A stretch of 64,000 bases of DNA from an uncultured virus (IMG/VR IMGVR_UViG_3300046506_000102) (IMGVR_UViG_3300046506_000102); one strand, 5' to 3'; numbered from the stretch's first letter, positions 17,023-47,482 are shown. Notes: generated by a model not told the origin, from the sequence alone. Numbers and translations: made by a program.

Positions 17023-17032
17023 CGAACAGCCC

Positions 17033-30704: not shown

Positions 30705-30787
30705 CGTCGCTGTTTCCTTTGGTGTCGCTGTTGCAGATAAAGAAATAGCGGCGAGGTTTTACGCTCGCCGCCATCGATCGATATTGA

Positions 30788-31591
30788 TTAGGTAACTGCT
30801 GCCGTTGCAACCGAGTAGGCGGACGCCGAACCGCTGGCGTTCGTTGCGTTGACACGCGCCTGAATGATCTTGCCAACCTGCGCGGCGGTCAGTGTGAACG
30901 TGTTGGCGGTTGCGCCAACAATTGCGACACCGCCCGCGTACCACTGATACGTATAGGTAATGACGGCATCACCCGTAAACGTGCCGTTCGAAAGATTGAG
31001 CGTCGTTCCGTTCGTTGCCGCGCCAGTGATAGCCGGAATAACGGTGTTAGTCGGCGCGACGCCGCCCGCGAGCGGATTAACGACGACTTCCTGTTGGTTC
31101 AGCGCGAGTGTGAAAACTTCAAGGTCGAAGTCTTCATTCTTGCCGTTCGGGCGCGTCGGTCCCATCACCAAGCCGCGATTGTAAATCACGGTACCCACGC
31201 CGCCGACAGTGGCCGGATCATTGCGCACCATCTTGAACGCGTAATTCAGATTGGTCTTCGCAGCGGCGCGCAACGCGATCTGACCGGGATCGGTCGGGAT
31301 GCGTGCGAATTCGAGCGTGGGCGATCCGGCATCGGTCAGGCCCTTTGCCTTCTGAATAACGGTGGTGTCCCACGTGTTGTAATTCAGAACGTTGGTCTTC
31401 GAACCGGTTTCACCCACGTTGCCGATGGATTTCACCTGAACCCAAACCAGCGCTTCGAAGTCGGCTTGAACCAAATCGGACTGTTGCGGAGTGGTGCAGA
31501 AATAGAGAACCGAACCCGCGTTCGAATTGGCGAACGCGACCGGGACAAGCGCGCTCGAAAGCAGCGCGGCGGCTAGGAACTTGGTTTTCAT
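30788..31591 (-). CDS. Major tail tube protein with C-terminal Ig-like domain and N-terminal leader
   Basis: IGNVGETG, KAKGLTDAG, DPGQIAL tube motifs; PTNTVIPAITG...YTYQW Ig-like; SD GAAGGGG before ATG 31591. Confidence 0.88.
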   Translation of the reverse strand: MKTKFLAAALLSSALVPVAFANSNAGSVLYFCTTPQQSDLVQADFEALVWVQVKSIGNVGETGSKTNVLNYNTWDTTVIQKAKGLTDAGSPTLEFARIPTDPGQIALRAAAKTNLNYAFKMVRNDPATVGGVGTVIYNRGLVMGPTRPNGKNEDFDLEVFTLALNQQEVVVNPLAGGVAPTNTVIPAITGAATNGTTLNLSNGTFTGDAVITYTYQWYAGGVAIVGATANTFTLTAAQVGKIIQARVNATNASGSASAYSVATAAVT

Positions 31592-31632
31592 AGGAAACCC
31601 CTTCGGAATGGATGAATAGCGCCACGCGAACA

Positions 31633-32067
31633 CTATGGGCGAAAACACCTATACATTATTCCAACCGGATAAAGCAATTCCGATCCATTGACCACCTGAC
31701 CGGACGCCACAGGATTTTCGTAAACCTCAACACTTGCTTGACCACTTACCAACCGTGTCTTTTTCGGGAAGAACGACGCGAGTTGATCCAAGTAAGTCAT
31801 GGGTGGATAGGCACCCTGTTCATCGATCGGCCAATGTAGAATGATGCGAAACGTGCCTTGATACACGCGGCTATCATCCCAATAGTCGCCAGTTCGGTTG
31901 TTCACGATGTTGACGAATTCGACGTATTTCCCATCCGGTGCTTTCTTGGTCGTGTCGAAAGTCAGGCCGATCGCTTTGATTGGCATGGTCGGAATTGCGC
32001 TCGCTGCAACGGCTGCAATTCCCGCCGCTTGCAATGCTTTCAATACGTCAGTTTCAATCATGTTCAT
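31633..32067 (-). CDS. Tail terminator protein
   Basis: Immediately upstream of the tail tube; size and position typical. Confidence 0.65.
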   Translation of the reverse strand: MNMIETDVLKALQAAGIAAVAASAIPTMPIKAIGLTFDTTKKAPDGKYVEFVNIVNNRTGDYWDDSRVYQGTFRIILHWPIDEQGAYPPMTYLDQLASFFPKKTRLVSGQASVEVYENPVASGQVVNGSELLYPVGIMYRCFRP

Positions 32068-32558
32068 TTGCTGCCCCTGTTTGCCGGTGATCGCGCGATG
32101 ATTTGCGCTGCAACTCTGTTAACGATCGTCTGCCAGTTTTGAATTCCGCTGATCAGAAACCCGTCATAGGCTTCGCGATACTTCGCGTAATTCGCGGTCC
32201 ACCCGAAATATATCGTTTGACCAAGCGTGAAACTCGCGAAATCGGCGATTGCCGTTGCGTCATTCCATGCATATTTCTTGTCAGGATCACCGCGAACCGG
32301 CCCGCTTGGAATTCCGGTTAGTGACATCTGACCGGACGCACGCAAAAAGCCCGTATCAACTCGCATCTTGCCGCCCTTCCCTACAGGCGTTTGAATTTCT
32401 TCAATCAACTCTTGAGTTGATTGCATCGCGAGCGCTCGCATTCGCTTTTCGGTTTCGGTGACAAAGCCCTCAACCGTCGCGCTGAAATTGTAGTTTCGGC
32501 TTCCAAGCGTTCTTTCGTAATTGTATGGGCCGTGTTTCGCTTGTCTTGCCATGATCAA
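32064..32558 (-). CDS. HK97 gp10-like neck/tail completion protein
   Basis: TP...RVDTGFLRAS...GWTANYA..RE motifs. Confidence 0.75.
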   Translation of the reverse strand: MIMARQAKHGPYNYERTLGSRNYNFSATVEGFVTETEKRMRALAMQSTQELIEEIQTPVGKGGKMRVDTGFLRASGQMSLTGIPSGPVRGDPDKKYAWNDATAIADFASFTLGQTIYFGWTANYAKYREAYDGFLISGIQNWQTIVNRVAAQIIARSPANRGSK

Positions 32559-32637
32559 CGACTTTCCAGATGGTCAAAATAGCGCTTGATTTGCGTTTCC
32601 ATTGTTGATAGACCGATATTCCAACAGTGGATTACCC

Positions 32638-33708
32638 ATGGCTGAAACGCTTGCCGATCTTGAGCGGTTACTTGGTCCGCCTTCCGAATTCATACTTTCT
32701 CAACGCACCATTCAGCCGTTGCGGCGTTGGGCTATTGCGATCGGCGTTGCGCCGGTCGAAGTCTACGCCATGTCAAACATTGAACTTTCCAACCTTTACC
32801 ACGAACGGGGCGAGGAAATAAAGTCGGATGCGAGCGAATTGCGGCGGATAGCTGCTGATTTGCTCTTGAAACTTACCGCCACCGTCCAGAGCAACAAGGT
32901 TGATCCGGAACTATTGCGATCGATCGTCCGCGACGAAATCGAACACTTGCCAACGCGCAAGATCGAAATATTAGGGCTGCAATCGAACATCATTCTTGAC
33001 GGCCCGTTGCACTATTCAACCGAACGCGTGATACAGATTTGCGCGATCAACCATCCGATTATGATGGTTGGCCCGGCAGGCTGCGGAAAAACCACGATCG
33101 GCAACCACGCGGCCCGTGCGCTCAATCTGCCGTTCTACATCACAAGCACTGTCACCGAGACGCACCAACTGACCGGCTTTATTGACGGCCACGGCGTCTA
33201 TCACCGCACGCCTTTTCGCGACGCGTTCGAATACGGCGGTTTGTGGGTTCCTGATGAAATCGACGCTTGGGACGCGGCGGCTTTGTTGGTCGCTAACAGC
33301 GCCCTAGCGAACGGCTATAGCGTGTTTCCGGATAGCCCTGCCCCGATTGCCCGGCATCCGAATTTCCGCATGGTAGCCACGGCAAACACGTTCGGGCACG
33401 GCGCGGATCGGGTCTATGTCGGGCGCAACGAATTGGACGCGGCGAGCCTAGACCGGTTCGCGACGATCAACGTTGATTATGATTTGACGCTTGAACGCCT
33501 GCTTTGCAACAGCAACGTTGAATGGCTGGAATACGTTTGGAAAATCCGCAAGGAAGTCACCGAACACAAGATCAGGCACGTTGTATCAACTCGCGCGATC
33601 ATCATGGGATCAGCCGCATTGCAGGTTGGAATTCCGCGCGATGAAGTCGAGGAAATTTATCTGTTCAAGGGAATGAGCAAGAAAGATCGCGATAAAATCG
33701 ACGCATAA
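32638..33708 (+). CDS. MoxR/CobS/CbbQ-type AAA+ ATPase
   Basis: GPAGCGKT, DEID, HPNFRMVATANTFGHG, YVGRNELDAASLDRF. Confidence 0.88.
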   Translation: MAETLADLERLLGPPSEFILSQRTIQPLRRWAIAIGVAPVEVYAMSNIELSNLYHERGEEIKSDASELRRIAADLLLKLTATVQSNKVDPELLRSIVRDEIEHLPTRKIEILGLQSNIILDGPLHYSTERVIQICAINHPIMMVGPAGCGKTTIGNHAARALNLPFYITSTVTETHQLTGFIDGHGVYHRTPFRDAFEYGGLWVPDEIDAWDAAALLVANSALANGYSVFPDSPAPIARHPNFRMVATANTFGHGADRVYVGRNELDAASLDRFATINVDYDLTLERLLCNSNVEWLEYVWKIRKEVTEHKIRHVVSTRAIIMGSAALQVGIPRDEVEEIYLFKGMSKKDRDKIDA

Positions 33709-33788
33709 ACCATCGCAAATTACACCGATTGACAAACGCAATTATCATCGCTATAATGATCGCGTTGTTCAATTGGAGAAACACGACG

Positions 33789-33980
33789 ATGGCAGCGAAG
33801 AAAGCTAAGTATGCGAACGTTGACGAAGCCGCCGCATTCCTCAAAAGCGAAGGCTTTGAATTCGTCAAGATGAACGGGCGTTGGGAAGTCGATATGTCTA
33901 ACGACGGCGGCGGCAAGGAATGCGCCTTGATCGAACCGCACGGGGATGGCGTCAAAATCGTTGATTGGCATCAGGATTAA
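33789..33980 (+). CDS. Small hypothetical early protein
   Basis: Downstream of the promoter at 33729; SD GGAG. Confidence 0.6.
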   Translation: MAAKKAKYANVDEAAAFLKSEGFEFVKMNGRWEVDMSNDGGGKECALIEPHGDGVKIVDWHQD

Positions 33981-33985
33981 TCCAG

Positions 33986-34282
33986 ATGGTCGGTAACTCA
34001 CCATCTGGCGGTTATCGTCGCAAGAATTTCCAAGATGATGCTTATGATCATCTTGGGCCGCGTGTTCGTCGCGCGCTGCAAGAGGCTGTGACCGCATGGG
34101 ACGCGGATTGGTGTTTGCGCATGGTGCGCAAACACGGTGCTGATTACGTGATCAAGGCTATTCACGAAGGCGACAAACAACAGGCTTCGCGAACCATTCA
34201 AATGAAGCCCGGTCAAAAGGGCTTTCCGTCATCGTATGCGGATAAGTCGTGCCGCGTGCCGATATTGCGAGCTAACTGGTAA
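33986..34282 (+). CDS. Hypothetical protein
   Basis: Packed between neighbours. Confidence 0.55.
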   Translation: MVGNSPSGGYRRKNFQDDAYDHLGPRVRRALQEAVTAWDADWCLRMVRKHGADYVIKAIHEGDKQQASRTIQMKPGQKGFPSSYADKSCRVPILRANW

Positions 34283-35446
34283 ATGACCGTAACCGTAACC
34301 GGCAAAACCTTTGAATTGCGCGACCGCCTGAAATCATTGGGCGGTCGCTGGAATGCTGAAAGCAAGGGTTGGGAATTTCACTCGCTATCGCCCGCGCATC
34401 GTCGCGAATTGATGGCGCATGTTGGTGTAGTCATCGGCGAGAAATCAACCGAGACACCGAAGCGCATTGATTTTGATACAGATGATGACACCACCGATTT
34501 AGGCGACTTCGGTAAACGGCATTCGCAATCACGATCACCCGGCCGAACCAATATGCATGGTGATGATCCGTCTTGGTTCAACTATTTCCGCGATCAAAAC
34601 CCGATCGGCTTTTTCGGCTATTCCAGCCTTTCGGCGATGGTCAAATACATTGAAGGATTGCCCGAACGCGACCGCAACGGGCGCGGTTGGTTGCGCGGCG
34701 ATGAAAGATGGTCAGGAACCGATTGCATGGGCGATGCAATCGAGATCGCGCGCAAAGGTTGGGCTGATGGCGTTGAACTCGCGCAAGAAATACACGAAAC
34801 GCTGACCGGTCAACACGCCAAGGAACGCAGGCGAAAACATACCGTCGCGGGCGGATCGGTGAACGTCGGGCGGATGCTTGCAGGTAACCCCGCGCATATG
34901 ATCGCGCGTCCCAAGCGCGAGGGAAAGAAAGTCGTCACGTTCTTTGTTGAGTGTTTCATGTCTGCCGGGATCGATGCCCAAAACGCAATCATTCGCGCGG
35001 CATTGATCGGAGCGATTGCGGACGTTCTCGAAATGAATGGGTATTCCTGCGAAATCGTTTCGATCAGCACCGCTGTAACCGTTCGTCGTAATGATCCGGC
35101 CTATCAAGTCGCAACCACGTTGAAAGCCGCTGGCGAAACGCTGAATTTGGATGACGTTGTTTTCGCGCTAGGTCATCCCGCTTATTTCCGTCGCCTTGTG
35201 TTCGGCTGCGTCGGAAGTGACGACGCTTTGCGAGACGAATGGCGTACGATGGGTTTGCCGTCGCGAGCATTCGACGCCGAACACCCAACGCGCGCAACCG
35301 AGTTATTCGTTGATAAGATCGCGCTCAATCATCAACGCTTGATTGATGACAACGCACCGCTGATCACTCGCGCAATGCAGATTTGGGATTTGATCGTCAA
35401 GGGCGAATTGCCCGTAATGCTTAACCGGGAGACTATCGACGCATGA
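34283..35446 (+). CDS. VWA-like (CobT-type) partner of the AAA+ ATPase
   Basis: GGSVNVGRMLAGNP, beta strand followed by ECFMSAG (degenerate MIDAS), LEMNGYSCEI, HPAYFRR. Confidence 0.65.
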   Translation: MTVTVTGKTFELRDRLKSLGGRWNAESKGWEFHSLSPAHRRELMAHVGVVIGEKSTETPKRIDFDTDDDTTDLGDFGKRHSQSRSPGRTNMHGDDPSWFNYFRDQNPIGFFGYSSLSAMVKYIEGLPERDRNGRGWLRGDERWSGTDCMGDAIEIARKGWADGVELAQEIHETLTGQHAKERRRKHTVAGGSVNVGRMLAGNPAHMIARPKREGKKVVTFFVECFMSAGIDAQNAIIRAALIGAIADVLEMNGYSCEIVSISTAVTVRRNDPAYQVATTLKAAGETLNLDDVVFALGHPAYFRRLVFGCVGSDDALRDEWRTMGLPSRAFDAEHPTRATELFVDKIALNHQRLIDDNAPLITRAMQIWDLIVKGELPVMLNRETIDA

Positions 35447-35700
35447 TCATCGCAATGATTAAAGGCGCAACGCGCGTGTGCGGCAAAGCGCAGGGCTATC
35501 TAGGCTTGCCGGTTCGCGATATGATCATCATCGATAAGGCGAGCGGACATCATGCGCCAGCAATGGAAACCGCTTGGACGCCTTCACCTGATGAACTTGA
35601 CCGGCTGAATAAAGGTGCGAACGTCATCGTTAGAATTTTAGGCGAGGTTCCGCCACCGATGATGTTGACCGTAGACACGGAACTACCGAAAGACGATTGA
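35443..35700 (+). CDS. Hypothetical protein
   Basis: GYLGLPVRD...AWTPSPDELDRLNKGA...PP motif. Confidence 0.65.
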   Translation: MIIAMIKGATRVCGKAQGYLGLPVRDMIIIDKASGHHAPAMETAWTPSPDELDRLNKGANVIVRILGEVPPPMMLTVDTELPKDD

Positions 35701-35731
35701 CCGGAAACTTACCAGCCGGTAAGTTGGCGGA

Positions 35732-35971
35732 ATGAATTTCCAACCCGCCGCTTTCAATCTCGCCGATGCAGCCGCCTATTGTGCGTTGTCTGTTCCGACG
35801 TTTGAGAAGGTTTGCCCGGTCAAGCCCATTGCGTTCACGGATAGCACGCGTGGAAACAGATACTTACGTGTACGGCTTGACGAATGGCTTTTGACGTTAG
35901 ACCCTAATGGCGCGCAGCCGGTCGCGCGCCGATTTGGGGAACGGTTAAGTGGTCGAAGTGAAGTTGCGTGA
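35732..35971 (+). CDS. xis: Excisionase-like winged-helix protein
   Basis: AAAYCALSVPTF...RYLRVRLDEWL; overlaps the integrase start. Confidence 0.7.
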   Translation: MNFQPAAFNLADAAAYCALSVPTFEKVCPVKPIAFTDSTRGNRYLRVRLDEWLLTLDPNGAQPVARRFGERLSGRSEVA

Positions 35972-37112
35972 CTTAAACATCACCCACGCTCGCGGCAAAT
36001 ATTACGTTTATATTCGCTCAACCGGTGCACCACTGGTCAAGGGTTTCGAAGGCGATAAGGTCGCACTTTTGAAACATCTGGAAGGCCCGCAATTCCTTCA
36101 AGTCTACAATCGCCCTCGCCTCGCCAAGCGTGCAACCGCAAATCTCGGAATTGAAACTCTAGGCGGTTTCATCAATTGGTTTACAAACGGCGATATCGAC
36201 CGAACGCTTAACGAGCGCAAAGACCCGAACAGATTTGGTTCTGATCCGAACGGTTATCCGAAGTGGCGAAACAAATTCGCCGCGTCAACTCGCGATGATT
36301 ATCTAAAATGTTTCGAGTACGTCCGTTCTGAATTCGATATTCTATTGAAGGATATCGGCACTTCCGATTTATACGATGTTCGCGACCGTTGCGCGAATGA
36401 GAAGAAAACGCGTTTCGCCGACAAGCTGATAACGTCGTTGTCATCGCTATTCAGACAAGCGGTTAAACGTGATCGAAAGACAGGGATGAAGTTTAATCCA
36501 TGTTCAGGCATGGATAAAATCCACCAAGCTGATCCGAATTCTAATCGCGAATGGCGTCCGGAAGAATGGGAGTATGTTCGCGAGCATGCACCGATGGAAA
36601 TGCTAATCCCGTTCATGCTCGCACGGTTTGCCGGTTTGCGTGGTCAAACGATTATCACCGTCAATCGAAAAATGGTCGAAGACCATCCGCTAACTGGTAA
36701 AGCTATTCGCTATGTTCCGCATAAGAACGCGGCAGTTGTAAAACAAGTTCTGTTGCCGATGCTACCTGAACTGCAAGAATTTCTAGCAACATTGAAGGTT
36801 GAGCGCGCGGACGGCTTGATCGCTCACCGCGATAGCGGAAGCAAATGGGGGACGCCGAACTACCTTCAAAAATACGTGAGCGCGTGGCTTAGAGAACAGG
36901 AACGGGCCGGGCATATCGGCGCGGGGACGACTTTACACGGCTTGCGCGTGACCTACGCCGCATGGTGGAAGCGTCACGGCGGCGCTACTGACCGCGAAGT
37001 AGCTGACCTATTGGGCGACGATAGCGAGGCGATGGGCGCGCACTACACGCGGCACGTTGACGCGGAAGTGAGCATCAATCGATCTTTCGAACGCATTAAG
37101 AATAAGCCGTGA
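35949..37112 (+). CDS. int: Tyrosine integrase
   Basis: FAGLRG (Arg), HGLR (HxxR), LLGD, HYT (catalytic Tyr). Confidence 0.9.
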   Translation: MVEVKLRDLNITHARGKYYVYIRSTGAPLVKGFEGDKVALLKHLEGPQFLQVYNRPRLAKRATANLGIETLGGFINWFTNGDIDRTLNERKDPNRFGSDPNGYPKWRNKFAASTRDDYLKCFEYVRSEFDILLKDIGTSDLYDVRDRCANEKKTRFADKLITSLSSLFRQAVKRDRKTGMKFNPCSGMDKIHQADPNSNREWRPEEWEYVREHAPMEMLIPFMLARFAGLRGQTIITVNRKMVEDHPLTGKAIRYVPHKNAAVVKQVLLPMLPELQEFLATLKVERADGLIAHRDSGSKWGTPNYLQKYVSAWLREQERAGHIGAGTTLHGLRVTYAAWWKRHGGATDREVADLLGDDSEAMGAHYTRHVDAEVSINRSFERIKNKP

Positions 37113-37120
37113 ACGCCACT

Positions 37121-37324
37121 TTGCAAAACACATAGGTTTTTCTGCAAAACAGCGCGGCAGGCGACATCAAAACTAAAACAAAATCAATAAGATGCCGGGA
37201 AACGAAACATACTTGGAAACGGCCGCTAATTCCTGTTGATACACTGAGATCATTGAGGTTTTCCGCAAAACAGCGCGGCCGAACCTAATCGAAACGAATG
37301 GAACAAAACGAGATTTGCAAAACA
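37121..37324. other. Putative attP site
   Basis: Directly after int; four GCAAAACA arm-type repeats (37123, 37144, 37265, 37317), two extended to GCAAAACAGCGCGGC, flanking a central segment with IHF-like AATCAA/TTGATA. Confidence 0.65.
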
Positions 37325-37773
37325 TGAGCGAGCTAGAAGACTTGATTGCATTCATCGCAAGAGCGACGGTCGGGCATAATCCGAGTGCTAAACAAAAGAA
37401 CGTTATTCAAAGAATAAGAACGCTGCTCCTCTCATTATATAGAGACAGGGCGGATAATGATTTTGATCGCGCGCAATCTCAAAAGCCTTCCGTCCGGAAC
37501 ATTCGAGATCGTCAGCTAAGAGAAAAGTACGGAATTACCCTAGACGATTGGGAAAAGATGTTCCTCGCCCAATCCAGCGCATGCGCAATTTGCAAATGCA
37601 CAAATCCCGGTCGTCAATGGCACACGGATCATTGTCACCGAACCGGCAACGTCAGGGGTATTTTGTGCCACGGCTGCAACACCGGTCTTGGGTATTTTTG
37701 CGATAGTTCCGCCGCGCTTCAATCGGCTGTGACATATCTCGATATTGCAGCGAAAAATGCAATCATCGCTTGA
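37324..37773 (+). CDS. Endonuclease VII-family HNH protein
   Basis: KYGITL...Q..CAIC...DHCH.TG.VRGILCHGCNTGLG. Confidence 0.85.
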   Translation: MSELEDLIAFIARATVGHNPSAKQKNVIQRIRTLLLSLYRDRADNDFDRAQSQKPSVRNIRDRQLREKYGITLDDWEKMFLAQSSACAICKCTNPGRQWHTDHCHRTGNVRGILCHGCNTGLGYFCDSSAALQSAVTYLDIAAKNAIIA

Positions 37774-37826
37774 CCATCGCAATTTTCATCGCTATAATCA
37801 TTGCATCAATAATAGGAGGATAGACC

Positions 37827-38147
37827 ATGGCTAATCAGCAAGGCGAAATGTACGCGGCTTACAAAGCCGAAACCGAAAAGAACAACACCAAGCCGGAAAT
37901 CATCAGCGGTTTTGAAGCGGTTGCCGAATTCATGCGGAACAACAAGTTCCCGGAAAAGCCGTACAGCCATGCCCCTAAGTTTTGGGGCGGGCCGGGCAAG
38001 GTGTACGATCTGGCGGATGGTCGCGTTGCCGAACTATCGCAAACGAATAGCGCGGTTGGAACACCGTTGCTTGCCATCTTTGCCAACCAAACCGATCATC
38101 TGAACTACCGAAAAGCGATGCCACTAAATACCTATCTGTACGGCTAA
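37827..38147 (+). CDS. Hypothetical early protein (own promoter and terminator)
   Basis: Promoter 37770, SD AGGAGG, terminator 38159-38182. Confidence 0.7.
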   Translation: MANQQGEMYAAYKAETEKNNTKPEIISGFEAVAEFMRNNKFPEKPYSHAPKFWGGPGKVYDLADGRVAELSQTNSAVGTPLLAIFANQTDHLNYRKAMPLNTYLYG

Positions 38148-38158
38148 CCCGCTCAATC

Positions 38159-38182
38159 AACCCCGCTTCGGCGGGGTTTTTT
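38159..38182 (+). terminator. Rho-independent terminator
   Basis: AACCCCGC-TTCG-GCGGGGTT-TTTT. Confidence 0.85.
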
Positions 38183-38253
38183 ATTTGTATATTACCTGTT
38201 GACCATCGCAATTTTCACCGCTATAACCAACGCAACGAATTGGAGATGGCGAC

Positions 38254-39096
38254 ATGACCACCGCAGCACACGTTTTCGAACTTTCCCATAACGGCAAAGC
38301 GCCCTTCCGTTGCGTTGGCGTGGCTAGCATCCCCTCGCCTTCGTTGGCTGAACAGAACCCGACCGCGTACAACAACGCGCTCGCCATGCTGCCGAAGGGC
38401 ATCGGCTGCGGTTCCTGCGCTCATTGCGGGACGGCGATCATGCACAATTACATCATCGTTTCGTCCGAAGGTAATAAGTTCGTTGTCGGTTCCGAATGCG
38501 TCATGAAAACCGGTGATGCGGGCTTGATCGCCACCGTCAAGGCGGAACGTTCCCGCATGGCTGCGGAAAAGCGCGAAGTTCGCCGCAACACAAACCGCGC
38601 CGAACGCGAAGCATCTTGGAAAGCCGAACGCGAAGCCAACGCAAAGCATTTCGCGATGATCTACGCTGATTTGATCACCAAGGCACAGCCGCATATGCAA
38701 ATCGCGTTCATCAAAGACGTGATCGAAGGTGGCTTATCGGGCCGGTTCATTTCCGACAAGGCTATCAGTGCGGTTGCCCGCGTAATCGAAAGCATCGAAC
38801 AGCGCGCTATCTGGAAAGCCAATTCCCGCCACACCGGCACCGTTGGCAAGCGTCAAACGTTCAACGTGGTGGTTGACCGCATCGCCTCTTATGAGCGCCC
38901 GTCGTTCGCTGGTTACGGCTATGACCGCGTTTGGATCGTCACCATGCGCGACGAAGCCGGAAACGCGATCGTTAGCAAGTCAACCGCATTCTGCCCGGAT
39001 CAGGGCGCAAACCTGACGATCAAGGCGACCGTCAAGGAACATTCGTCATATGATGGCGAACAGCAGACAATCGTTCAGCGGATCAAGGTTGCTTGA
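38254..39096 (+). CDS. Hypothetical protein (Zn-binding N-terminus, OB-fold-like C-terminus)
   Basis: CAHCG...VGSEC; IKATVKEHSSYDGEQQTIVQR. Confidence 0.7.
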   Translation: MTTAAHVFELSHNGKAPFRCVGVASIPSPSLAEQNPTAYNNALAMLPKGIGCGSCAHCGTAIMHNYIIVSSEGNKFVVGSECVMKTGDAGLIATVKAERSRMAAEKREVRRNTNRAEREASWKAEREANAKHFAMIYADLITKAQPHMQIAFIKDVIEGGLSGRFISDKAISAVARVIESIEQRAIWKANSRHTGTVGKRQTFNVVVDRIASYERPSFAGYGYDRVWIVTMRDEAGNAIVSKSTAFCPDQGANLTIKATVKEHSSYDGEQQTIVQRIKVA

Positions 39097-39097
39097 T

Positions 39098-39578
39098 ATG
39101 AAACTAACTCAACCCCAAATCACGGCCCTGCAATTCCTCGCTAAAGGGCCATGGGTAGCGCCATGGTGGGGCGGGAAACCGCACATTACACGACCGAAGG
39201 AATTGCCTGCCGCAACACTTAGCAAGCTTGTAACGCTGCGCTATGTCAGGATTATGCACGTTGGGCGGTTCGATCCCGTCACAACGATCACCGAAGCCGG
39301 GTTGAAAGCTCTGAACGACACGATCACCGCAACCGCACAGAAGATATTGAAAGGTGCAATCAACAATGGACTTTAGACATCAAAACGTCGTTGCGCTGTT
39401 CGAAAGAGCAAAAGAAATCGTCATGTTGTCGAAAACTGAATTGGGTTATTCCGACATTGGCGACGTAATCGTAATGTTTCTGCGCGCCGAAATCTCATCC
39501 TTCGAAGCAATCGAAAAGATGAACAATTTGGCTATCGATTATGAACGCAAGCGATCGGCTGGAAAATTGTGGCGCTAA
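39098..39578 (+). other. Two small hypothetical genes (39098-39376, 39366-39578)
   Basis: Overlapping ORFs converging on the MuF-like gene. Confidence 0.5.
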
Positions 39579-40600
39579 TCGATATTCGCCAGCCAATCAA
39601 TTTTCATTTTGGTTCGGCAGCGGCAGTTGATCGTTTCGGACGCATCAGCACCAAGCGAGCTATCACCCGGAAACATCAGCAATTGCCCTGATGGCGTCTT
39701 GAACGGTTCATCCAAACCAACGGTTTGACCGTTCATTTCCGCATGCGAATGTCTCACGCGGCTATCTCCCGCATCGTCCCATTCGCGTTTAACGTCCTTT
39801 TGTTTGACCGCGCCCATATCGGACGCTTGCAACAACGCTTCGTGCTGCGAACGATTGAGCGATTGAATTGTTTCGGTGCGCGAGATCGTTTCACCACGCA
39901 ATTGCAACAAGCTGGATTTGTAACGAATAACCAGCTTGTCGATTGTTGCTTGATCCAACGGTTGACCGCTATCGATCGCCTTTCTAACGATGCCGTCAAA
40001 CCGCTTATCGCGCCGCGCTCGCGTGAAATACCGTTCGTTCAACTCCGAAAGATCGCGACTTGCGTTCGCAACCCAACCTTCCTGTTGCTGCGTCAAGCCG
40101 ATAATTCCGCCGACACGCTTCCCGGTGCGCGTATCAATGCGCCCGACAATATCAAGAGCGGTTGAACGCGGGTTATCGCCAGCCTCAAGACCGCGCGTAA
40201 TGACGTTGCGGACGTTCACCCGCGCGTCTTCCTGAATTTGAACGATCAGCCGCGACGATTGCTCTTTCAACCACTGTTCGGCACGCGGGTTCGTCACGTC
40301 GAAACGGAACACCGCCCTGCCCGCGCCTGTGTTCAGCACCTTGGGGAAAGTTGATCCGACCGCAACGCCGCCTTGCTCGAATACCGTTTGCAACGCTGCT
40401 GTGATCGGCCGCAGTGACGCATTGGACATGCCTAGCGTGGTGAACGCCTTTTCATAATCCTTCGCCTGAACGGCCTTGATCAAGTCTGTCAAAATCACCT
40501 GATCGTTGACGCCCTGAATTGCAGCCCGGAAGGCATCGCGAATTTTAGGCGCGAGTTTGTCAATTAGTTCATCAAGGATTTGTTCAAGCGATTTTGCCAT
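39575..40600 (-). CDS. Head morphogenesis protein (SPP1 gp7/MuF-like)
   Basis: ETISRTE, DSRVRHSH, FPGD...INCRC. Confidence 0.88.
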   Translation of the reverse strand: MAKSLEQILDELIDKLAPKIRDAFRAAIQGVNDQVILTDLIKAVQAKDYEKAFTTLGMSNASLRPITAALQTVFEQGGVAVGSTFPKVLNTGAGRAVFRFDVTNPRAEQWLKEQSSRLIVQIQEDARVNVRNVITRGLEAGDNPRSTALDIVGRIDTRTGKRVGGIIGLTQQQEGWVANASRDLSELNERYFTRARRDKRFDGIVRKAIDSGQPLDQATIDKLVIRYKSSLLQLRGETISRTETIQSLNRSQHEALLQASDMGAVKQKDVKREWDDAGDSRVRHSHAEMNGQTVGLDEPFKTPSGQLLMFPGDSSLGADASETINCRCRTKMKIDWLANID

Positions 40601-40664
40601 TTACTTGACTGCCATAAGAAAGGCTATGAAACAGATCAGGGCTATTAGTTCGTTTGACATCCTG

Positions 40665-41027
40665 TTAGCCACCCGCCCGAAAAATAATCACGTTGACCAC
40701 CGGGGTTCCAACCGGGGGAATGGGTTGAATAGCAACAATTTTATACGGAACGCCGTCCGCCTCGATTGATCCGGTCATTTCTGGCGTGAACCGAGCATCA
40801 ACAGGCGCGATAACTTGAAGATCGGTCGCGACCGCCAACCCGCTTTGAACGTACTTGAATTTAACGCCCGTCGCTATTGCCGGGATCGTGAACGGCGTTT
40901 TCGTCGGCGGGCCGGGGTTATCAACAGGACCGTTGCCCGGCACAACTTGAACATATTTGACCAAGCCTTGCTGGAATTCGGTCAACACGCCCCGCGCTAC
41001 TTCCTGCATTTCATCATAGAACGTCAT
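40665..41027 (-). CDS. Head closure / head-tail joining protein
   Basis: Position after the adaptor; size typical. Confidence 0.65.
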   Translation of the reverse strand: MTFYDEMQEVARGVLTEFQQGLVKYVQVVPGNGPVDNPGPPTKTPFTIPAIATGVKFKYVQSGLAVATDLQVIAPVDARFTPEMTGSIEADGVPYKIVAIQPIPPVGTPVVNVIIFRAGG

Positions 41028-41132
41028 ATGATTTCCCCCTTGTTCATCAACTTACCACTTGACGATTTAGAAAACCATCACTAGAAACACCGTATTGTGA
41101 GTTTTTAACCACCATCAGGGAAATCTATCAAA

Positions 41133-41564
41133 ATGGCAAAACCCGCCACTGCTTCCAGCACCCCCAAGACGAAGACCGCACAGCCGCCGCGCGTCGCGCC
41201 GGTTCTTACTGCGGTTTCCAACTCCGTTCCGATGCCCGATCGCAATGCCAATCGCGGAAGCAAGACTTCGTATCCGTTCGAAGCGCTGACCGCTGCGGGC
41301 ATGTCGTTCGGCGTGAAGAACAAGACTTCGAAACAGCTTGCTTCGATCATCAGCAATCAGAACCGCAAGCCCGGCCCGACCAAGCGCAATCCGGATGGTT
41401 CGATCGTCTACAAAACGTCGGACATGACCGACGCGCAGGGCAACGTGACGAAGGTTCCGACCAACGAGCCGGAAACGATGCCCGGCAAGCAGTTCTTCGC
41501 CGTCGATTGCGATCCGAAGACCGATCCGGACGGCGCCAGCGTTCGCGTGTTCCGCCAGTCGTAA
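41133..41564 (+). CDS. Putative DNA-binding protein, opposite strand within the head operon
   Basis: RGSKTSYPFEAL...SFGV...VRVFR; own terminator at ~41588-41622. Confidence 0.65.
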   Translation: MAKPATASSTPKTKTAQPPRVAPVLTAVSNSVPMPDRNANRGSKTSYPFEALTAAGMSFGVKNKTSKQLASIISNQNRKPGPTKRNPDGSIVYKTSDMTDAQGNVTKVPTNEPETMPGKQFFAVDCDPKTDPDGASVRVFRQS

Positions 41565-41587
41565 CACCGGCAATTCTCCACAACATC

Positions 41588-41622
41588 ACCGCCCTGTAAT
41601 TCGCTTTACAGGGCGGTTTTCT
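41588..41622 (+). terminator. Rho-independent terminator
   Basis: ACCGCCCTGTAA-ttcgct-TTACAGGGCGGT-TTTCTT. Confidence 0.8.
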
Positions 41623-41623
41623 T

Positions 41624-42133
41624 TTAGACCCTAGCGACGAAGCCCGACACCGCCGAAAAGCTACCAGTGCCCGCCCCTGTAAGAATGGGGGCCAACATGG
41701 CAGCAAGCGCGGGCATCTGAGTTTGAAAGTCGTATGCATCGCCGATTGCGTATGTCACCGACACCGCGCCGCTAACCGAAACGCTGCGATATTTCGACGG
41801 GTTGTAATCCTTGAAAAACACGCCCGGTGTCTGCAACTGGCGAAACGCCGCTTGATATGTTGCCGCAAGCACCTCGCGGGGAATGTCGGTGCTTGGTACG
41901 GAATACCCGTAATTATCCTGTACACCGATACGCGGCCATTCACGAACCTGATCGCGTCCGCCGACTTTCAACCCCATGTATTGCGTTCGAAACGCAGCAT
42001 CCAAATATTCGGACGCCACAAGCAACGCTGCATTGATTTCGTTATCGTCAAACGCGACGATCGCGGCTTGCTGCCCACGCGCAACCCAATAGGTTTCGAA
42101 GTCGGTCGCATTGCCATAAACCGGATCGGTCAT
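41624..42133 (-). CDS. Head-tail adaptor (DnaT-like family)
   Basis: AALLVASEYLD...G...Q.REWPR...IPREV..AT. Confidence 0.8.
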   Translation of the reverse strand: MTDPVYGNATDFETYWVARGQQAAIVAFDDNEINAALLVASEYLDAAFRTQYMGLKVGGRDQVREWPRIGVQDNYGYSVPSTDIPREVLAATYQAAFRQLQTPGVFFKDYNPSKYRSVSVSGAVSVTYAIGDAYDFQTQMPALAAMLAPILTGAGTGSFSAVSGFVARV

Positions 42134-42216
42134 CTTCCATCCCCGTCAAAAGAAAAGCCCGCTACGGCGAACCGTAGCGGGCAGGATAGCACATTCCGCC
42201 GATGGTCTATAGACGG

Positions 42217-42633: not shown

Positions 42634-42657
42634 AGGTCTTTCCTTTCTCGCTAGAGG

Positions 42658-43119
42658 TTACGCCGATTTGGTACTCTTTCGGCCCGCCTCAATCGATTGG
42701 GCCAAATGGTTCATTTGTTCTTTCATTTCCTCAAACCCGCGATGCACGTCAGCTTTTAGTTCGCTGTGCTTGTCGTTGAAGTCGCGCTTTAGTTCGTCCG
42801 TCGCCTTATAGAAGCTATCGCGCCGCATGTAGTTTTCGGCCATCTGCGCACGGAAATCGGAGAACCCTAATTGCAACGCATGGATGTTCGCTGTGATCGC
42901 TTCAAATCCAACTTTAGAGTTGGACGCGGCGTTAGCGTTCTTTTCGATGAACTCGAAACGCAACGCGTTATATTTTTCGGTAGTATCTTTTTCGAGCGCG
43001 CCAAATCTAGCTGTGAGTTTGCTTCCGCCGCCGAACAAGTCTTTGCCGAGCACGATTGCAAGGCTGATGCCGGTGAAAATCAAAGCGATCGTTGAACTGT
43101 CCATGTGCCCGGTCATCAC
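42658..43119 (-). CDS. Single-TM coiled-coil membrane protein (holin candidate, unproven)
   Basis: N-terminal TM helix IALIFTGISLAIVLG then coiled coil. Confidence 0.5.
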   Translation of the reverse strand: MMTGHMDSSTIALIFTGISLAIVLGKDLFGGGSKLTARFGALEKDTTEKYNALRFEFIEKNANAASNSKVGFEAITANIHALQLGFSDFRAQMAENYMRRDSFYKATDELKRDFNDKHSELKADVHRGFEEMKEQMNHLAQSIEAGRKSTKSA

Positions 43120-43198
43120 TGGATAGAATTAAGACAAAGGGCCGGGCGGTACTTCCGCGCCCGGCCCCAATCGTCACGCAACCGCCAGTGGCAAGTTA

Positions 43199-44443
43199 CT
43201 AACCGAGAAGGCCCGCGATATGTTCCGGCTTGATCGCCTTCACACCCCATGCCTGCGCCACTTCCGCGCGGATTTTCCGATAACCGGCATAGATGGCGAC
43301 TTCGAACACCATGCCCGAACGCGGATCGGTGATGTTGATCCGGTCAATGGCAAGATCGCCTTCGTTCGGCAGCGCGGGCGCACGGGCCACAAGCCGCAAA
43401 GCGTTCGGCGAAAACGCGGTGCTGCCGACATGCGCGGCAACCACGGTGATGGCGGTTGCAGATGCCGGGATAGCCACGCGCAAGCCCGGTGCGTTCAGCG
43501 TGATCGAACCGCCCGCCGCCGCGCTGGCGAGACCACCACCGGGGGCAACCGTATACACGTTGTTGTCACCCGCGAACTTGATCGAAGTACCGGCCGGAAT
43601 GGTGCCGGAACCCGCCGCCGCGATCGGAATAACGGTGGTGCCCTTCGCGAAGCCCGCTGCGGTGGTGGTGGAGCCCGCTGCGGTGCCTGCGCCGATCAAC
43701 GGGACGCCAGCGCTTTCCTTGATGTTCAGGCCGGCAAGGTTGATCAGGGTACCATCGGTCAGAACCATCTGCGTTCCGGCTTCGTTGGCCTTGGTCAGAT
43801 TGGTCAACGAACGGAGATTTGCGCCCGCAGTGGTGTCAACAATGAGCGCACGGCCGGTCAGCGGTGCGCCGTTGTCGTCAAGGATTTTGCGAACCTGCGC
43901 AGCATCACCAACGGTGCTTGCAAACGGCGTGGTGCCAGCGGTACCCCACCAACGCGACACGTTCGCGGCGGCTTCGGCGGCAAGATCAACTTCGATTGCG
44001 TTCGTCAGCGTGCGGAGTGCCTGCGCGAACAAATCCGCCTGCACCGACAGATAGCCCGAACCGGTGTTCAACCCGCGCTGTTCTTCACCAGTGAAGCCGA
44101 ACGGGACGGCCTTGGATTTGGTAATCGAGATCGTGCCGTTGCCGATGGTGTTATCCGGGGGTTCCGGAATGCTCATTGCGGGCGTGACATCCACCATGCC
44201 TTGCTGCGGCGTGACGAAATACACGATCGATTGACCGACCGCCGCGCGTTCTGCGGAAACGTCGCGAACAACGGAGGGAATGTAGCCGACCAACTCACGC
44301 GAAACCACGTCAAGGCCCGCGTAAAGGTCGGGGATCAGCCGGGTTAGCGTGTTGGCGTAAGCCGCCATGTGAACGATGGCCGGGGCAGAGATCAGCGCCG
44401 ACGCAGTGAGCAGCGACGGCTTAATAAGAGACTTCGCGCGCAT
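43199..44443 (-). CDS. Major capsid protein (P22 coat-like) with N-terminal leader
   Basis: ANTLTRLIPDLYAGLDVVSRELVG...WGVKAIKPEH; SD AGGAG 9 nt before ATG 44443. Confidence 0.9.
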   Translation of the reverse strand: MRAKSLIKPSLLTASALISAPAIVHMAAYANTLTRLIPDLYAGLDVVSRELVGYIPSVVRDVSAERAAVGQSIVYFVTPQQGMVDVTPAMSIPEPPDNTIGNGTISITKSKAVPFGFTGEEQRGLNTGSGYLSVQADLFAQALRTLTNAIEVDLAAEAAANVSRWWGTAGTTPFASTVGDAAQVRKILDDNGAPLTGRALIVDTTAGANLRSLTNLTKANEAGTQMVLTDGTLINLAGLNIKESAGVPLIGAGTAAGSTTTAAGFAKGTTVIPIAAAGSGTIPAGTSIKFAGDNNVYTVAPGGGLASAAAGGSITLNAPGLRVAIPASATAITVVAAHVGSTAFSPNALRLVARAPALPNEGDLAIDRINITDPRSGMVFEVAIYAGYRKIRAEVAQAWGVKAIKPEHIAGLLG

Positions 44444-44689
44444 GTTGCAACGCTCCTAATCAGATGATGTTTCGGGATTGGTCTAAGTGCATCATCCGAT
44501 GCGAAACGCCGCATTGCCATCCGGTCTAGCGACTAGTTGCAATCGGTAAACGTGTTCGCGTTTTTGGTCAAGCGCTGATGATAGCTCAAAACGTAAAGGG
44601 CGCGCAGTTTCCCCCATCAAAAAGAACTGCGCGCCCTCCGATCAAGTCGAGTTGCCAGCGACGAACAACCCGACGATGGTTGTTAGTGG

Positions 44690-45541
44690 TCAATCAACGA
44701 TAGTCACGACACCCTTAGCCATTTCGCCCGCAATGCGCGCCTGTTCATGGCCCGGCATTTTGTCGTATTCAGCGCGAGCAACGGTGCGCCCGCCGCCGCG
44801 ATTGCCACCGTTGCCGCCACCGCCGCCGCCGCTGTTGTTGTTCGCCTTCAAGATGACGGCTTTCTGCGGATGCTGATCCACAAGAATTTCCAGCGCTTCG
44901 GCCGCATCTGCAACTTGGCCGGTGTTCTTTTTGCTGAAAATACGGTTTCCGCTCTTGTCGAAAGCTTCAACTCGCCCATCATCCGCAACCTTCAAATTGT
45001 TGCGAAAGTAGGCTTGGAACATATCGAGCGGCATAGCGATGTTTTCGCGAACGAATTCCGATTGACTGAAAACGTTGTCAATTCGCAAATCGTTCAGCGA
45101 AGATTTCAGCGTGCCGTTTTCCTTCGACAACGTTTCGATCTGTCCGCTGAATTGCGCCTTGATATCGTTCGTCACGCGATCGACTTCGCCCGCATCGATC
45201 AGCTTTTTCTTGTCAAGCTTATCGGTGATTTCGAGCGAGGCCCGCGCCTTGGCCGGATCGATGCCCTCGAAAGTCGCAAGCGTTGCTTCGGCCTTTTCGG
45301 CGCGCTCGCGGTGCTGCTTCGCTTCGCCGTTGATGCGCGTGATGGCGTCGGAATTCAACGTTCCTTCGCTGCCGTCCGCGTTGATCCAAATCGGGTTGCC
45401 ATCCTTCAACTGAATGGCCTTGCCGTCTTCGGTCAGCTTCCAACCGGCCTTACCGGGATCGAACACACGCAAATGAAGCCCGGCCATGTGAGCCGAAAGA
45501 AGCTTGGTTGCGATCGAATTGAAGATAACTGCTTTGGTCAT
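44690..45541 (-). CDS. Capsid scaffolding protein
   Basis: DGNPI..., LNSDAITRINGEAKQHRE, KLIDAGEVD, EALEILV, Gly-rich C-terminus; SD AAAGGA before ATG 45541. Confidence 0.85.
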   Translation of the reverse strand: MTKAVIFNSIATKLLSAHMAGLHLRVFDPGKAGWKLTEDGKAIQLKDGNPIWINADGSEGTLNSDAITRINGEAKQHRERAEKAEATLATFEGIDPAKARASLEITDKLDKKKLIDAGEVDRVTNDIKAQFSGQIETLSKENGTLKSSLNDLRIDNVFSQSEFVRENIAMPLDMFQAYFRNNLKVADDGRVEAFDKSGNRIFSKKNTGQVADAAEALEILVDQHPQKAVILKANNNSGGGGGGNGGNRGGGRTVARAEYDKMPGHEQARIAGEMAKGVVTIVD

Positions 45542-45618
45542 TGTCGCTTTTCCTTTGGTCATCCGACCATTGCGCCGCTTGCTATCCTGCTCACGACTGG
45601 TTGAGTTTACGCACGTAG

Positions 45619-45774
45619 TTACAAAACACCGGATCGCTGCACCTTCTTGATTTCCTCAAGAATGCGCTTGTTCAGGACATCGTTCGCGCCCTGCAATTTC
45701 AGAATGGTTGATTTCATTTCCGCGACATCGCGTTCAAGCGCTTCGATGCGGCGACGATTTTCAATGTCAGACAT
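45619..45774 (-). CDS. Small coiled-coil protein
   Basis: RIEALERDVAEMK; overlaps the portal stop. Confidence 0.5.
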   Translation of the reverse strand: MSDIENRRRIEALERDVAEMKSTILKLQGANDVLNKRILEEIKKVQRSGVL

Positions 45775-47482
45775 TTGCAGGGATTTGCTTTCGCGGTTGC
45801 GGTTTCTTCGGGTTGTTGGGCGGATTGCCGCCCGTATCGTCTGCGGCGTTCGGATCAACGGTGTCATCCGGGGTTTCTTCGAGCAACTGCCGTTTGTTCT
45901 CGTCTTCGTCCATATCCGGACGCACGGTATTGCGGCGCTTCAATTCGATGATGTAGTTTTCATGGCTCAAATCGCCGTTCGTGCGTGCGAACTGCAATGC
46001 GCTGTGATCGCTTGCTTGATCCGTGGTGAAATCGTCGAAGTCGTCATAGATATGTACGACGGGTTCGAAATCAGTTGTCTTTAGGTTCATCCAAAGACAG
46101 GTAAGCTTCATTGCGTTTTCAAGCGCTTCCTTTAACCCAACTGCCCACCAACCAACGGCCGAACGCGTCTTGCCTGCCGCATACGCAGTTGTGACAACGG
46201 TAAGGTTGCCGGATTGCGCGGTCAGCGGTTGCCGCCCAAGATCGCGAACAACGTCCTGCGTTTCTTTAATGTCGTCCTTTAGCCAACGCAGGTTTTCAGC
46301 GGGCGGAACGACATAATCCCAATGCCCGATTTTGCCGGTTGCGTCCGGTTCGGAATACAAGACGACGTTCGGGCCAACAGCGAGTTGCAGCGGTTTTCCG
46401 TCCGGTCCTTTTTGCGGCTTAACACCGTTCGCCGCGAGCATGGGATATGCGGACATCAACCGCGCGAATTTCAGCCCGCTTTCTTTCTGATACAACTCGA
46501 TTTGCGCATCAGCGGCAGCAAGCATCGGTTTCGAGAAACGCCACGTGCGCCCGTTGCGGCGACCGGTCGTGAACGGCACAAGCGGAATAACGCCGATCGA
46601 AATTGGCGCGCTATCAACCATGATGAACGTTTTGGTTTTGCCGTCTGCTTCAAGTTTTTCTTCGAATAGCGCCATCATCACCGAACCGTCGTCGGTGCGC
46701 TCGAAAACGCGAATGTGGTTCGGCGTACCCGGTTCAAGGATGCGCAACCGAACAAGCGTTTCCTTGCTGTTGATGATCTTGGACGTAGCTTCAAGCACGT
46801 TGCGGCCAAGCACGTGTGACCAAAACGGACGAATGTTTTGGTCTTTCTGATCTTGCTGCGTACGAACACGCGACGGATCAACCTTCGGGTAATCGACGTA
46901 AATCCAATCGATCGCGGAATTGATGCCGTTGAAAAACGTCACCGCACCGAATGACGACAAGCAATTCCCTGCCCCGTCAACATCCTTCGCAAATTCTTCA
47001 ATGTCGGGCGGCAGCGGAACCGGGTTGCCGGTTGCTTTGTCTTTGTCCTGTTGAAGTGTGATTGGTTCCTCAAACGGTTTGCCCGCGAGCATTTCAACAA
47101 CGTCACCATAGACGTTTGTCATTTCGGTTTGCAGCAAACGCGCGTTGTAATTGTCGGTCGGTTCGTTCGCAAATCGCGGCAAATACTTATCGCCGCGCCC
47201 TTTGACTGCGGTGTAACCTTCAATCAAATCGTCGGTCAAATCCCAATACGGAAGCATGTAAGCGCTATCTAAATTGCGAGCGCTCAAGTCTTCCTGCGTT
47301 GAACTGACCGTGACGATTTCCTGATTTGCTGCCCTTCGCGCCGCATCCATCAATGCGGAAATCAAGCCGGTGTTAACGCGACCGGGAGGGGCAGGCGGAA
47401 ACGAGTTGGGCAACGTACCGGGATCGAATGCGCGAATGCGAATTGCGTTCTTTGCGACGGTCGAAAGCATGTGATGGCGCAT
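45767..47482 (-). CDS. Portal protein (DUF4055-like)
   Basis: KYLPRF..E...YNARL; between terL and scaffold. Confidence 0.88.
   Translation of the reverse strand: MRHHMLSTVAKNAIRIRAFDPGTLPNSFPPAPPGRVNTGLISALMDAARRAANQEIVTVSSTQEDLSARNLDSAYMLPYWDLTDDLIEGYTAVKGRGDKYLPRFANEPTDNYNARLLQTEMTNVYGDVVEMLAGKPFEEPITLQQDKDKATGNPVPLPPDIEEFAKDVDGAGNCLSSFGAVTFFNGINSAIDWIYVDYPKVDPSRVRTQQDQKDQNIRPFWSHVLGRNVLEATSKIINSKETLVRLRILEPGTPNHIRVFERTDDGSVMMALFEEKLEADGKTKTFIMVDSAPISIGVIPLVPFTTGRRNGRTWRFSKPMLAAADAQIELYQKESGLKFARLMSAYPMLAANGVKPQKGPDGKPLQLAVGPNVVLYSEPDATGKIGHWDYVVPPAENLRWLKDDIKETQDVVRDLGRQPLTAQSGNLTVVTTAYAAGKTRSAVGWWAVGLKEALENAMKLTCLWMNLKTTDFEPVVHIYDDFDDFTTDQASDHSALQFARTNGDLSHENYIIELKRRNTVRPDMDEDENKRQLLEETPDDTVDPNAADDTGGNPPNNPKKPQPRKQIPANV

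Follow-up and report, generated by a model that had tools for sequence, protein, structure and literature searches.

Four virion proteins with N-terminal leaders

The stretch of DNA analysed here, called the window throughout, covers 64,000 nucleotides of an uncultured virus (IMG/VR IMGVR_UViG_3300046506_000102) and looks like most or all of the genome of a soil siphophage of the Rhizobium phage vB_RglS_P106B type. Between positions 30,788 and 47,482, its minus strand encodes a portal, a scaffold, a P22-like major capsid protein and a tail tube protein, each of which begins with a short N-terminal leader ending in a small and an aromatic residue. Comparison with homologues supports these leaders as real, translated additions that are conserved in relatives, and a separate open reading frame (ORF) at 8647-9066, predicted to encode a papain-like (C39-like) cysteine peptidase, is the best-supported candidate for their removal. 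The leaders are as follows, with ↓ marking the presumed junction with the mature protein.

47426-47482, minus strand: portal leader, 19 codons from ATG 47482, MRHHMLSTVAKNAIRIRAF↓DPG
45461-45541, minus strand: scaffold leader, 27 codons from ATG 45541, MTKAVIFNSIATKLLSAHMAGLHLRVF↓DPG, ending LHLRVF↓DPG
44357-44443, minus strand: capsid leader, 29 codons from ATG 44443, MRAKSLIKPSLLTASALISAPAIVHMAAY↓ANT, ending APAIVHMAAY↓ANT
31532-31591, minus strand: tube leader, 20 codons from ATG 31591, MKTKFLAAALLSSALVPVAF↓ANS, ending LVPVAF↓ANS

A first-pass annotation of the window had proposed these four starts and leader sequences, and a check on the window sequence found them correctly placed. The traits listed there are shared by all four leaders, which lack Asp and Glu, contain [LM]L[ST] and end in [AV]-[FY]. 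Likewise present are the Shine-Dalgarno (SD) sequences assigned to the long starts of three of the genes, with AGGAG lying 9 nt before the capsid ATG, GAAGGGG before the tube ATG and a weaker, GGA-rich sequence before that of the scaffold, while the internal capsid ATG (Met26) is preceded by none. PHROG profiles begin to align at capsid residue 30 (profile position 2), scaffold residue 48 and portal residue 67, that is, only past the leaders, which marks the leaders as extra. When the N-termini of the window ORFs were compared, such a leader was found on no other ORF.

The same architecture is widespread among the closest homologues. An N-terminal extension of 11-58 residues (median 25) is carried by 117 of the 120 best capsid homologues (59-100% identity), the other three starting M-ANT. 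An aromatic residue (Y in 98, H in 9, F in 7) stands immediately before the mature start in 92 of these proteins and two residues earlier in 22, and is missing in 3; the residue preceding it is Ala in 99 of 114. For the tube, a pattern applied to the 120 best homologues (60-99% identity) identified a leader of 9-28 residues in 106; nine others start M-AN[TS]N, and the remaining five, which the pattern did not anchor, have a leader by eye. Position -1 of the tube junction is F in 83 and Y in 19, position -2 is A in 90 and V in 12, and position +1 is Ala in 98 of the 106. Leaderless relatives start M-ANTLT (capsid), M-ANTNA (tube) and M(x)xWK (scaffold), precisely where the leaders of the other phages end. 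The M-ANT start that the first-pass annotation had given for homologous coats is therefore found in leaderless relatives, and a cut after F/Y would restore an end of this type; its expectation that the leaders are extra and the A-[FY] junction conserved is borne out by the alignments of the two sets of 120 homologues.

Fourteen leader-bearing genomes were examined fully or nearly so (the window, P106B, G002-G008, G026, G027, G029, G035 and G036). Leaders were found on the scaffold in 14/14, on the capsid in 13/13 readable cases, on the tube in 13/14 and on the portal in 12/14, the portal leaders being judged by eye and ending A-[FY]. All 14 scaffold leaders end in [FYH], 2-9 residues before a conserved GWK. 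In P106B, the N-termini read MFRKLHLLSSTAF↓ANN for the portal, ...HLAILLATAF↓NNAGWKL for the scaffold, ...APFILSGAY↓ASANT for the capsid and MKSYLAILLASAF↓ANSNAAS for the tube. Leader ends resemble one another within a genome, as in P106B (LLSSTAF, ILLATAF, ILLASAF), in G027 and G036 (...FPVAF or ...YPVAF) and in G029 (...ATAF or ...TTAY), and in G041 all four proteins have G-[FY] (...AGF, ...MGF, ...TGY); this likeness fits one reader of the motif per phage. In five sister genomes (G010, G011, G028, G032 and G033), all four proteins are leaderless, and this joint absence indicates that the leaders were lost as a set.

Viral contigs with a capsid homologue number about 535, of which 80 were inspected. 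Among 30 phage records with a capsid homologue, a match reaching the N-terminus (query residue 1-7) was obtained for P106B (two records), for RHph_X2_24 and nominally for Caulobacter phage DMCA (residue 2). The apparent DMCA leader, which was based on tblastn coordinates, was rejected: its frame contains a stop 6 codons before M-GALTLT, and the phage is leaderless and lacks the peptidase gene described below. An A-[FY] leader was seen in none of 80 bacterial-genome loci with a capsid homologue, most of which start M-ANTLT. A different coat extension, of approximately 50-60 residues and membrane-helix-like, occurs at nine bacterial loci (L121, L137, L156, L164, L166, L168, L169, L182 and L188) and in the viral contigs L057, L061, L067 and L075. 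The 59.7-kb viral contig G045 (L361-L363) has a capsid gene at both ends, with slightly different leaders, and this duplication is probably a terminal overlap from the assembly of two variants.

Automatic extraction yielded 39 capsid, tube and scaffold junctions, in which position -1 is F (19), Y (18) or H (2), position -2 is Ala in 35, position +1 is A (18), D (9), F (5), E (3) or N (2) and position +2 is Asn in 30. The remainder of the leader is variable in length and sequence, as in propeptides. A position matrix built from this set and applied leaving one genome out at a time, with a threshold of at least 14 bits, retrieved 0-4 sites in each of the 14 leader-bearing genomes (three with none) and recovered the portal junction in six of them, portals being absent from the training set. 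It returned no site in the five leaderless sister genomes, G012, Caulobacter phage Sansa, Stenotrophomonas phage AXL3 or MW202621, and one in DMCA that is likely a false positive. A loose pattern scan gave many false matches in all genomes and was left unused for counts. The R-x-F presequence signal that the first-pass annotation had read as pointing to a host M16/MPP-like peptidase finds no support in this comparison, as Arg occupies position -3 in only one of the 39 junctions, that of the window scaffold; Arg at -3 is particular to the portal and scaffold of the window and is missing from the portals of relatives.

The tag also occurs on further proteins. The DUF7303 protein of the window (41133-41564, plus strand) is leaderless, and its homologues in P106B, G027, G029 and G036 bear the same leader. 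A Gp2.5-like single-stranded-DNA-binding (SSB)/annealing protein has a leader in G008 (16581-17630) and G035, reading MRMTTLTPLTAVAY↓NNEGSG and MHTTLLPLTAAAY↓MSGDPG; the copy in the window (11692-12726) is without one. The tag is thus not strictly a virion feature, the Gp2.5-like protein being a replication protein.

A candidate leader peptidase

No prohead protease had been recognised in the first-pass annotation, and Pfam and PHROGs searches over 81 window ORFs (17 + 64) agree, identifying no protease family, with none of the classical types S78/U35, S49/ClpP-like or U9/S80 and no Pfam match to the Prp family (DUF464, C108) among these ORFs. The MuF-like protein weakly matches PHROGs labelled 'head maturation protease' (E 1e-8 to 1e-9), its best match being the head morphogenesis family phrog_3517 (E 8e-115). 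The candidate lies elsewhere in the genome:

8647-9066, minus strand: candidate leader peptidase, stand-alone, 139 aa; at its start it overlaps the stop of ORF 9063-9689, with endonuclease VII and helicase genes downstream of it

Residues G17-D18-C19, H102 and H113 of this protein are invariant in 30 homologues (38-84% identity), and residue 114 is Asn or Asp throughout these sequences. An AlphaFold (AF2) model reached a pLDDT of 93. Its best match among 48,161 chains compared with VIA-align is the ComA peptidase domain PEP (5xe8, Z 9.5, 114 of 135 residues, rmsd 3.0), followed by the endoisopeptidase PeiR (Z 8.7), PCAT1 (8vp3, Z 8.6) and LahT150 (6mpz, Z 8.3), with 7s5j at Z 7.6. Three of the four top folds are thus C39 domains, which cut N-terminal leaders, and other papain-like enzymes come after them; no Prp chain is among the 50 fold matches listed. 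Foldseek against the PDB gave weak papain-like matches (E 0.02-0.3; Josephin-type, UfSP, staphopain), and in the nearest ESM Atlas cluster with a Pfam family, 15% of the members have PF03412. PDB sequence searches with the capsid and the tube returned nothing useful.

The distribution of the gene follows that of the leaders. When 68 window ORFs were searched for in 12 leader-bearing and five leaderless sister genomes (17 relatives), ORF 8647-9066 alone was present in 12/12 of the former and 0/5 of the latter. Twenty ORFs occur in all 17 genomes, two occur in 11/12 and 5/5, and the next nearest patterns reach 9/12 leader-bearing genomes. Every complete or nearly complete leader-bearing relative has the gene: P106B (gp57, directly upstream of the helicase), RHph_X2_24, G002, G003, G005-G008, G026, G027, G029, G035, G036, G041, G042, G043 and G045. 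The five leaderless sister genomes lack it and retain the helicase and a homologue of ORF 9063-9689. The contig G004 was rejected as a case of leaders without the peptidase gene, as it starts inside the helicase gene and is without the whole polymerase-helicase stretch. The first-pass annotation had mentioned the C39-like ORF as a mere alternative; the invariant Cys and His residues, the C39-like model and the co-occurrence now make it the best-supported candidate, with the papain-like assignment itself being a prediction from sequence conservation and modelling.

Gene layout of the window

The layout of the window is the same in P106B, and database host fields name Rhizobium and Sinorhizobium (alphaproteobacteria) for P106B and RHph_X2_24. 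The structural genes are arranged as follows.

47668-49470, minus strand: large terminase
45767-47482, minus strand: portal gene (DUF4055, phrog_145)
44690-45541, minus strand: scaffold gene (DUF6651, phrog_784)
43199-44443, minus strand: P22-like coat (major capsid) gene (phrog_283)
39575-42133, minus strand: adaptor, head-closure and MuF-like proteins
29860-32558, minus strand: neck protein, tail terminator, tail tube and tail chaperones, on the other side of a plus-strand island
30788-31591, minus strand: tail tube (major tail protein) gene (phrog_158), with a C-terminal Ig-like part
27133-29847, minus strand: tape measure

Several features lie close to the leader-bearing genes. An in-frame ATG is found 5-7 codons 5' of the scaffold start (window 45542-45562), after a conserved in-frame '...RRNGW-MT' that recurs in many relatives (L006, L014, L021, G026, G029) and may be a conserved signal or overlapping element rather than coding sequence. 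Directly 3' of the scaffold gene, a G+C-rich hairpin with a T run resembles a terminator (approximately 44590-44650). Within 44444-44689, about 200 nt of non-coding DNA lie between this hairpin and the capsid start, and for this reason the capsid gene may have its own promoter. An ORF of 82 aa (45619-45867, minus strand) covers the portal 3' end in another frame, has no family match and may not be a gene.

The plus-strand island at 32602-39578 separates the head genes from the tail genes and encodes an AAA_5/CobS-like ATPase (32602-33708), a DUF7192 protein (34283-35446), an integrase (35949-37112), endonuclease VII (37315-37773) and several unknown ORFs. Its ATPase and DUF7192 genes are common to 7/12 leader-bearing relatives, P106B included, and ORF 35443-35700 is found in 9/12; the integrase has no match in any of the 17 relatives compared. 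In the tail region (21585-22917, minus strand), the consecutive ORFs 22501-22917, 22073-22504 and 21585-22121 each have M-T-T-R-R at or near the start and look like tandem paralogues. Large esterase/lipase-like proteins are encoded upstream of the terminase at 51938-53368 and 54887-56245 (minus strand; phrog_8480 'lysophospholipase L1-like esterase' and phrog_6102 'lipase'), and a gene with the same esterase annotation sits within the head module of P106B.

Proposed processing and its relation to known systems

The combined observations suggest a model in which portal, scaffold, coat and tail tube would be made as pro-forms with removable N-terminal propeptides. The leaders follow a common plan, with a basic residue or two, then a segment in which Leu, Ala, Ser and Thr are abundant, and an ending of small-aromatic type (A-[FY], rarely G-[FY] or A-H). 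The phage-encoded, stand-alone C39-like peptidase of ORF 8647-9066 would recognise the leader and cut after the aromatic residue, giving N-termini (ANT..., ANS..., DPG...) equal to those of leaderless relatives, and in some relatives it may also serve the DUF7303 protein and the SSB protein. Most likely, the leader would hold self-assembling proteins in an inactive or chaperoned state before processing. We give about an even chance to the central claim, that the phage peptidase removes the leaders.

A number of observations weigh against this model. Trees of TerL and MuF place the five leaderless genomes in one clade (100/99), with G004 as its sister, nested inside the leader-bearing group under midpoint rooting. 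The contrast between leader-bearing and leaderless genomes therefore represents a single evolutionary event, probably the joint loss of leaders and peptidase. Homologues of the peptidase (27.9-37% identity) are present in the leaderless phages Sansa (gp087), AXL3 (gp47), MW202621, G044 and G047, so the family has, or also has, another job; the AXL3 homologue keeps the same Cys and His motifs, and a further homologue is found in Xylophilus phage Lumi, outside the set inspected for leaders. Leaders were looked for in Sansa, AXL3 and MW202621, and none was found; a Sansa candidate at 37603-37977 was rejected, as it is annotated 'o-spanin?' and sits beside lysis genes. In the window, the gene belongs to the replication module (4.3-16.5 kb), beside the helicase and not among the late genes, and it is also among replication genes in Sansa, AXL3 and MW202621, whose gene contexts were inspected. 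The enzyme assignment itself has weak points: Cys19 is not preceded by a conserved Gln, and the third catalytic and oxyanion-hole residues could not be placed. Moreover, Z scores of 8-9.5 are modestly above the tool's background of 7-8, no Pfam family (PF03412 included) matched up to E 10, and a family profile matched no C39 chain among PDB sequences. C39 enzymes cut after Gly-Gly, and the junctions here are A-[FY], or G-[FY] in G041. Finally, we infer the cleavage itself, its position after F/Y and the identity of ORF 8647-9066 as the enzyme.

Other accounts of the leaders were weighed against this model. A host protease might cut them, as Prp does in phage 80alpha, in which case the C39-like gene would be unrelated, and the leaderless clade would have lost it by coincidence or as a side effect of switching hosts. 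This is unlikely in our view, though a serious contender, given the precedent described in the accessible part of the 80alpha study (PMC5744158), the position of the gene in the replication module, its homologues in leaderless phages and the single event underlying the co-occurrence. It is countered by the absence of Prp from Proteobacteria, reported in the accessible part of PMC9405229, by the R-x-F signal for M16 peptidases, which is not conserved, and by the C39-like gene being core to 12/12 complete leader-bearing genomes. The motif, moreover, drifts between genomes and is uniform within a genome (A-F, P-V-A-F, and G-F in G041), a pattern that a co-evolving phage enzyme would fit more easily than a conserved host enzyme. 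Alternatively, the leaders might stay on the proteins, retained or disordered in the virion, and serve as N-terminal tags that mediate membrane association, bind chaperones, act in co-assembly or regulate expression. The hydrophobic, signal-like tube and capsid leaders would suit such tags; the scaffold N-terminus of 80alpha is required for assembly and its cleavage dispensable, according to the accessible part of PMC5744158; and a role in virion maturation alone is at odds with the leader on the SSB protein of G008 and G035. On the other side, positions -2, -1 and +1 are strictly conserved right where the mature domain begins, which is how a cleavage site would look, and the leaders co-occur with a peptidase-like gene. 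By analogy with 80alpha, some 415 copies of a hydrophobic 29-aa leader per capsid, plus one per tube subunit, would have to be fitted into folds that leaderless relatives build without them. We regard permanent tags as improbable, yet deserving of real weight.

The resemblance to Sec signals that the first-pass annotation had pointed out holds for the tube, partly for the capsid, and fails for the portal, the scaffold and many short polar leaders of relatives. In tube leaders, a basic n-region is indeed combined with a hydrophobic stretch 12-16 residues long, Asn is preceded by A-F-A or A-Y-A, and +1 is Ala in 98 of 106, so that signal peptidase I could be pictured cutting capsid and tube after A-x-A (AYA↓N, AFA↓N). 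However, the portal and scaffold leaders (IRIRAF↓DPG, LHLRVF↓DPG, ...TAF↓NN) lack A-x-A and are weakly hydrophobic, many leaders of relatives are too short or polar (for example MNKNITILSTTGY, MSITLPQAF and MKLRPLTAAAY), some tube variants have F or V at +1, and the heads and tails of tailed phages assemble in the cytoplasm. Sec signal peptides are accordingly a very remote prospect. Remoter still is an artefact of start assignment, in which the true starts would lie downstream (at capsid Met26, for example) and the leaders would go untranslated. An in-frame ATG does lie 4 codons before the capsid junction and another within the scaffold leader, but it is the long starts that have SDs and not the internal ATGs, the tube leader contains no internal start, and protein-level conservation of the leaders, with an open frame and variable length, extends to more than 100 homologues each. 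A broader idea goes beyond head maturation and takes leader and C39-like peptidase as a general phage pro-protein switch for abundant, self-assembling or host-sensed proteins, such as coat, portal, scaffold, tail tube, a DUF7303 protein or the Gp2.5-like SSB protein of G008 and G035; a Sec-signal-like leader would hold each protein inert, park it at the membrane or hide it from host sensors that detect conserved phage proteins until a timed clipping by the phage peptidase. We consider this generalisation doubtful; if correct, it would add a new post-translational timing layer in Gram-negative phages across replication, head and tail.

A literature search, with the original P106B paper outside its reach, retrieved no virion proteomics of P106B and no C39-like leader peptidase acting on capsid or tail proteins. 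To our knowledge, the main described case of leaders being clipped off, apart from the classical prohead proteases, is Prp of Firmicute phages, which borrows a host enzyme of ribosome maturation. Removal by ORF 8647-9066, if true, would mean that phages of Gram-negative soil bacteria have an independent, second solution, in which a phage-borne leader peptidase of the bacteriocin-exporter type serves proteins from the portal through to the tail tube and, among some relatives, also outside the virion. It would also give a function to phrog_5845, a widespread and unannotated family of small phage proteins, and many phage annotations would have their mature N-termini corrected. A system of one enzyme and a single short motif would provide a handle on the control of capsid and tail assembly by cleavage, and the proposal is directly testable in P106B, a cultured phage grown on Rhizobium gallicum.

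Classical prohead proteases (HK97 gp4, T4 gp21 and the phiKZ type) cut several head proteins (capsid, scaffold, portal and internal proteins) at a shared short motif. They are encoded by head-module genes, are built into the prohead and act inside it, and are not known to process tail tube proteins; no such protease is detectable in the window. Phage P22, whose assembly is not known to need proteolysis, is similar in having a coat of the same P22-like family (phrog_283, with 'P22 coat protein' among the source names), a separate scaffold and no prohead protease. Most relatives, counting those at the 80 bacterial-genome loci, are leaderless and start M-ANT. Relative to P22, the leader and the peptidase of the window appear as an add-on confined to the P106B-like group.

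The C39 domains of ComA, PCAT1 and LahT150 are papain-like domains of approximately 140 residues that use Cys and His and remove N-terminal leaders from several substrates, and ORF 8647-9066 matches them by predicted fold. In contrast, the phage protein has no PF03412 match and is not fused to an ABC exporter, its presumed junction is A-[FY] and not G-G, and its presumed substrates are large structural proteins of the cytoplasm rather than exported peptides. Phage Cp-1 would be similar in encoding its own cysteine protease for an N-terminal extension of its capsid protein, which, in the accessible part of PMC9405229, is trimmed by a protease of the Prp clan. That clan is not papain-like, however, and Cp-1 is a podophage of Gram-positive bacteria for which one substrate is described there.

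The closest parallel is the 80alpha/Prp system. According to the accessible part of PMC5744158, the host cysteine protease Prp cuts F↓A and shortens the 80alpha capsid and scaffold by 13 and 14 residues, respectively, and the same motif occurs on the major tail protein of phi13. Both systems have short leaders, one motif on non-homologous virion proteins and an aromatic residue before the junction (F/Y/H in 39/39 here), and both do without a classical prohead protease. Prp is nevertheless a host enzyme of family C108 with another fold and also matures ribosomal protein L27, whereas the candidate of the window is phage-encoded and C39-like. In the accessible part of PMC9405229, Prp is assigned to Firmicutes along with a small number of other phyla; E. 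coli has no Prp, and its L27 has no N-terminal extension. The leaders of the P106B-like phages are longer (9-58 aa) than those of 80alpha and are found in phages of Gram-negative hosts, on the portal as well and, in some relatives, on the DUF7303 and SSB proteins.

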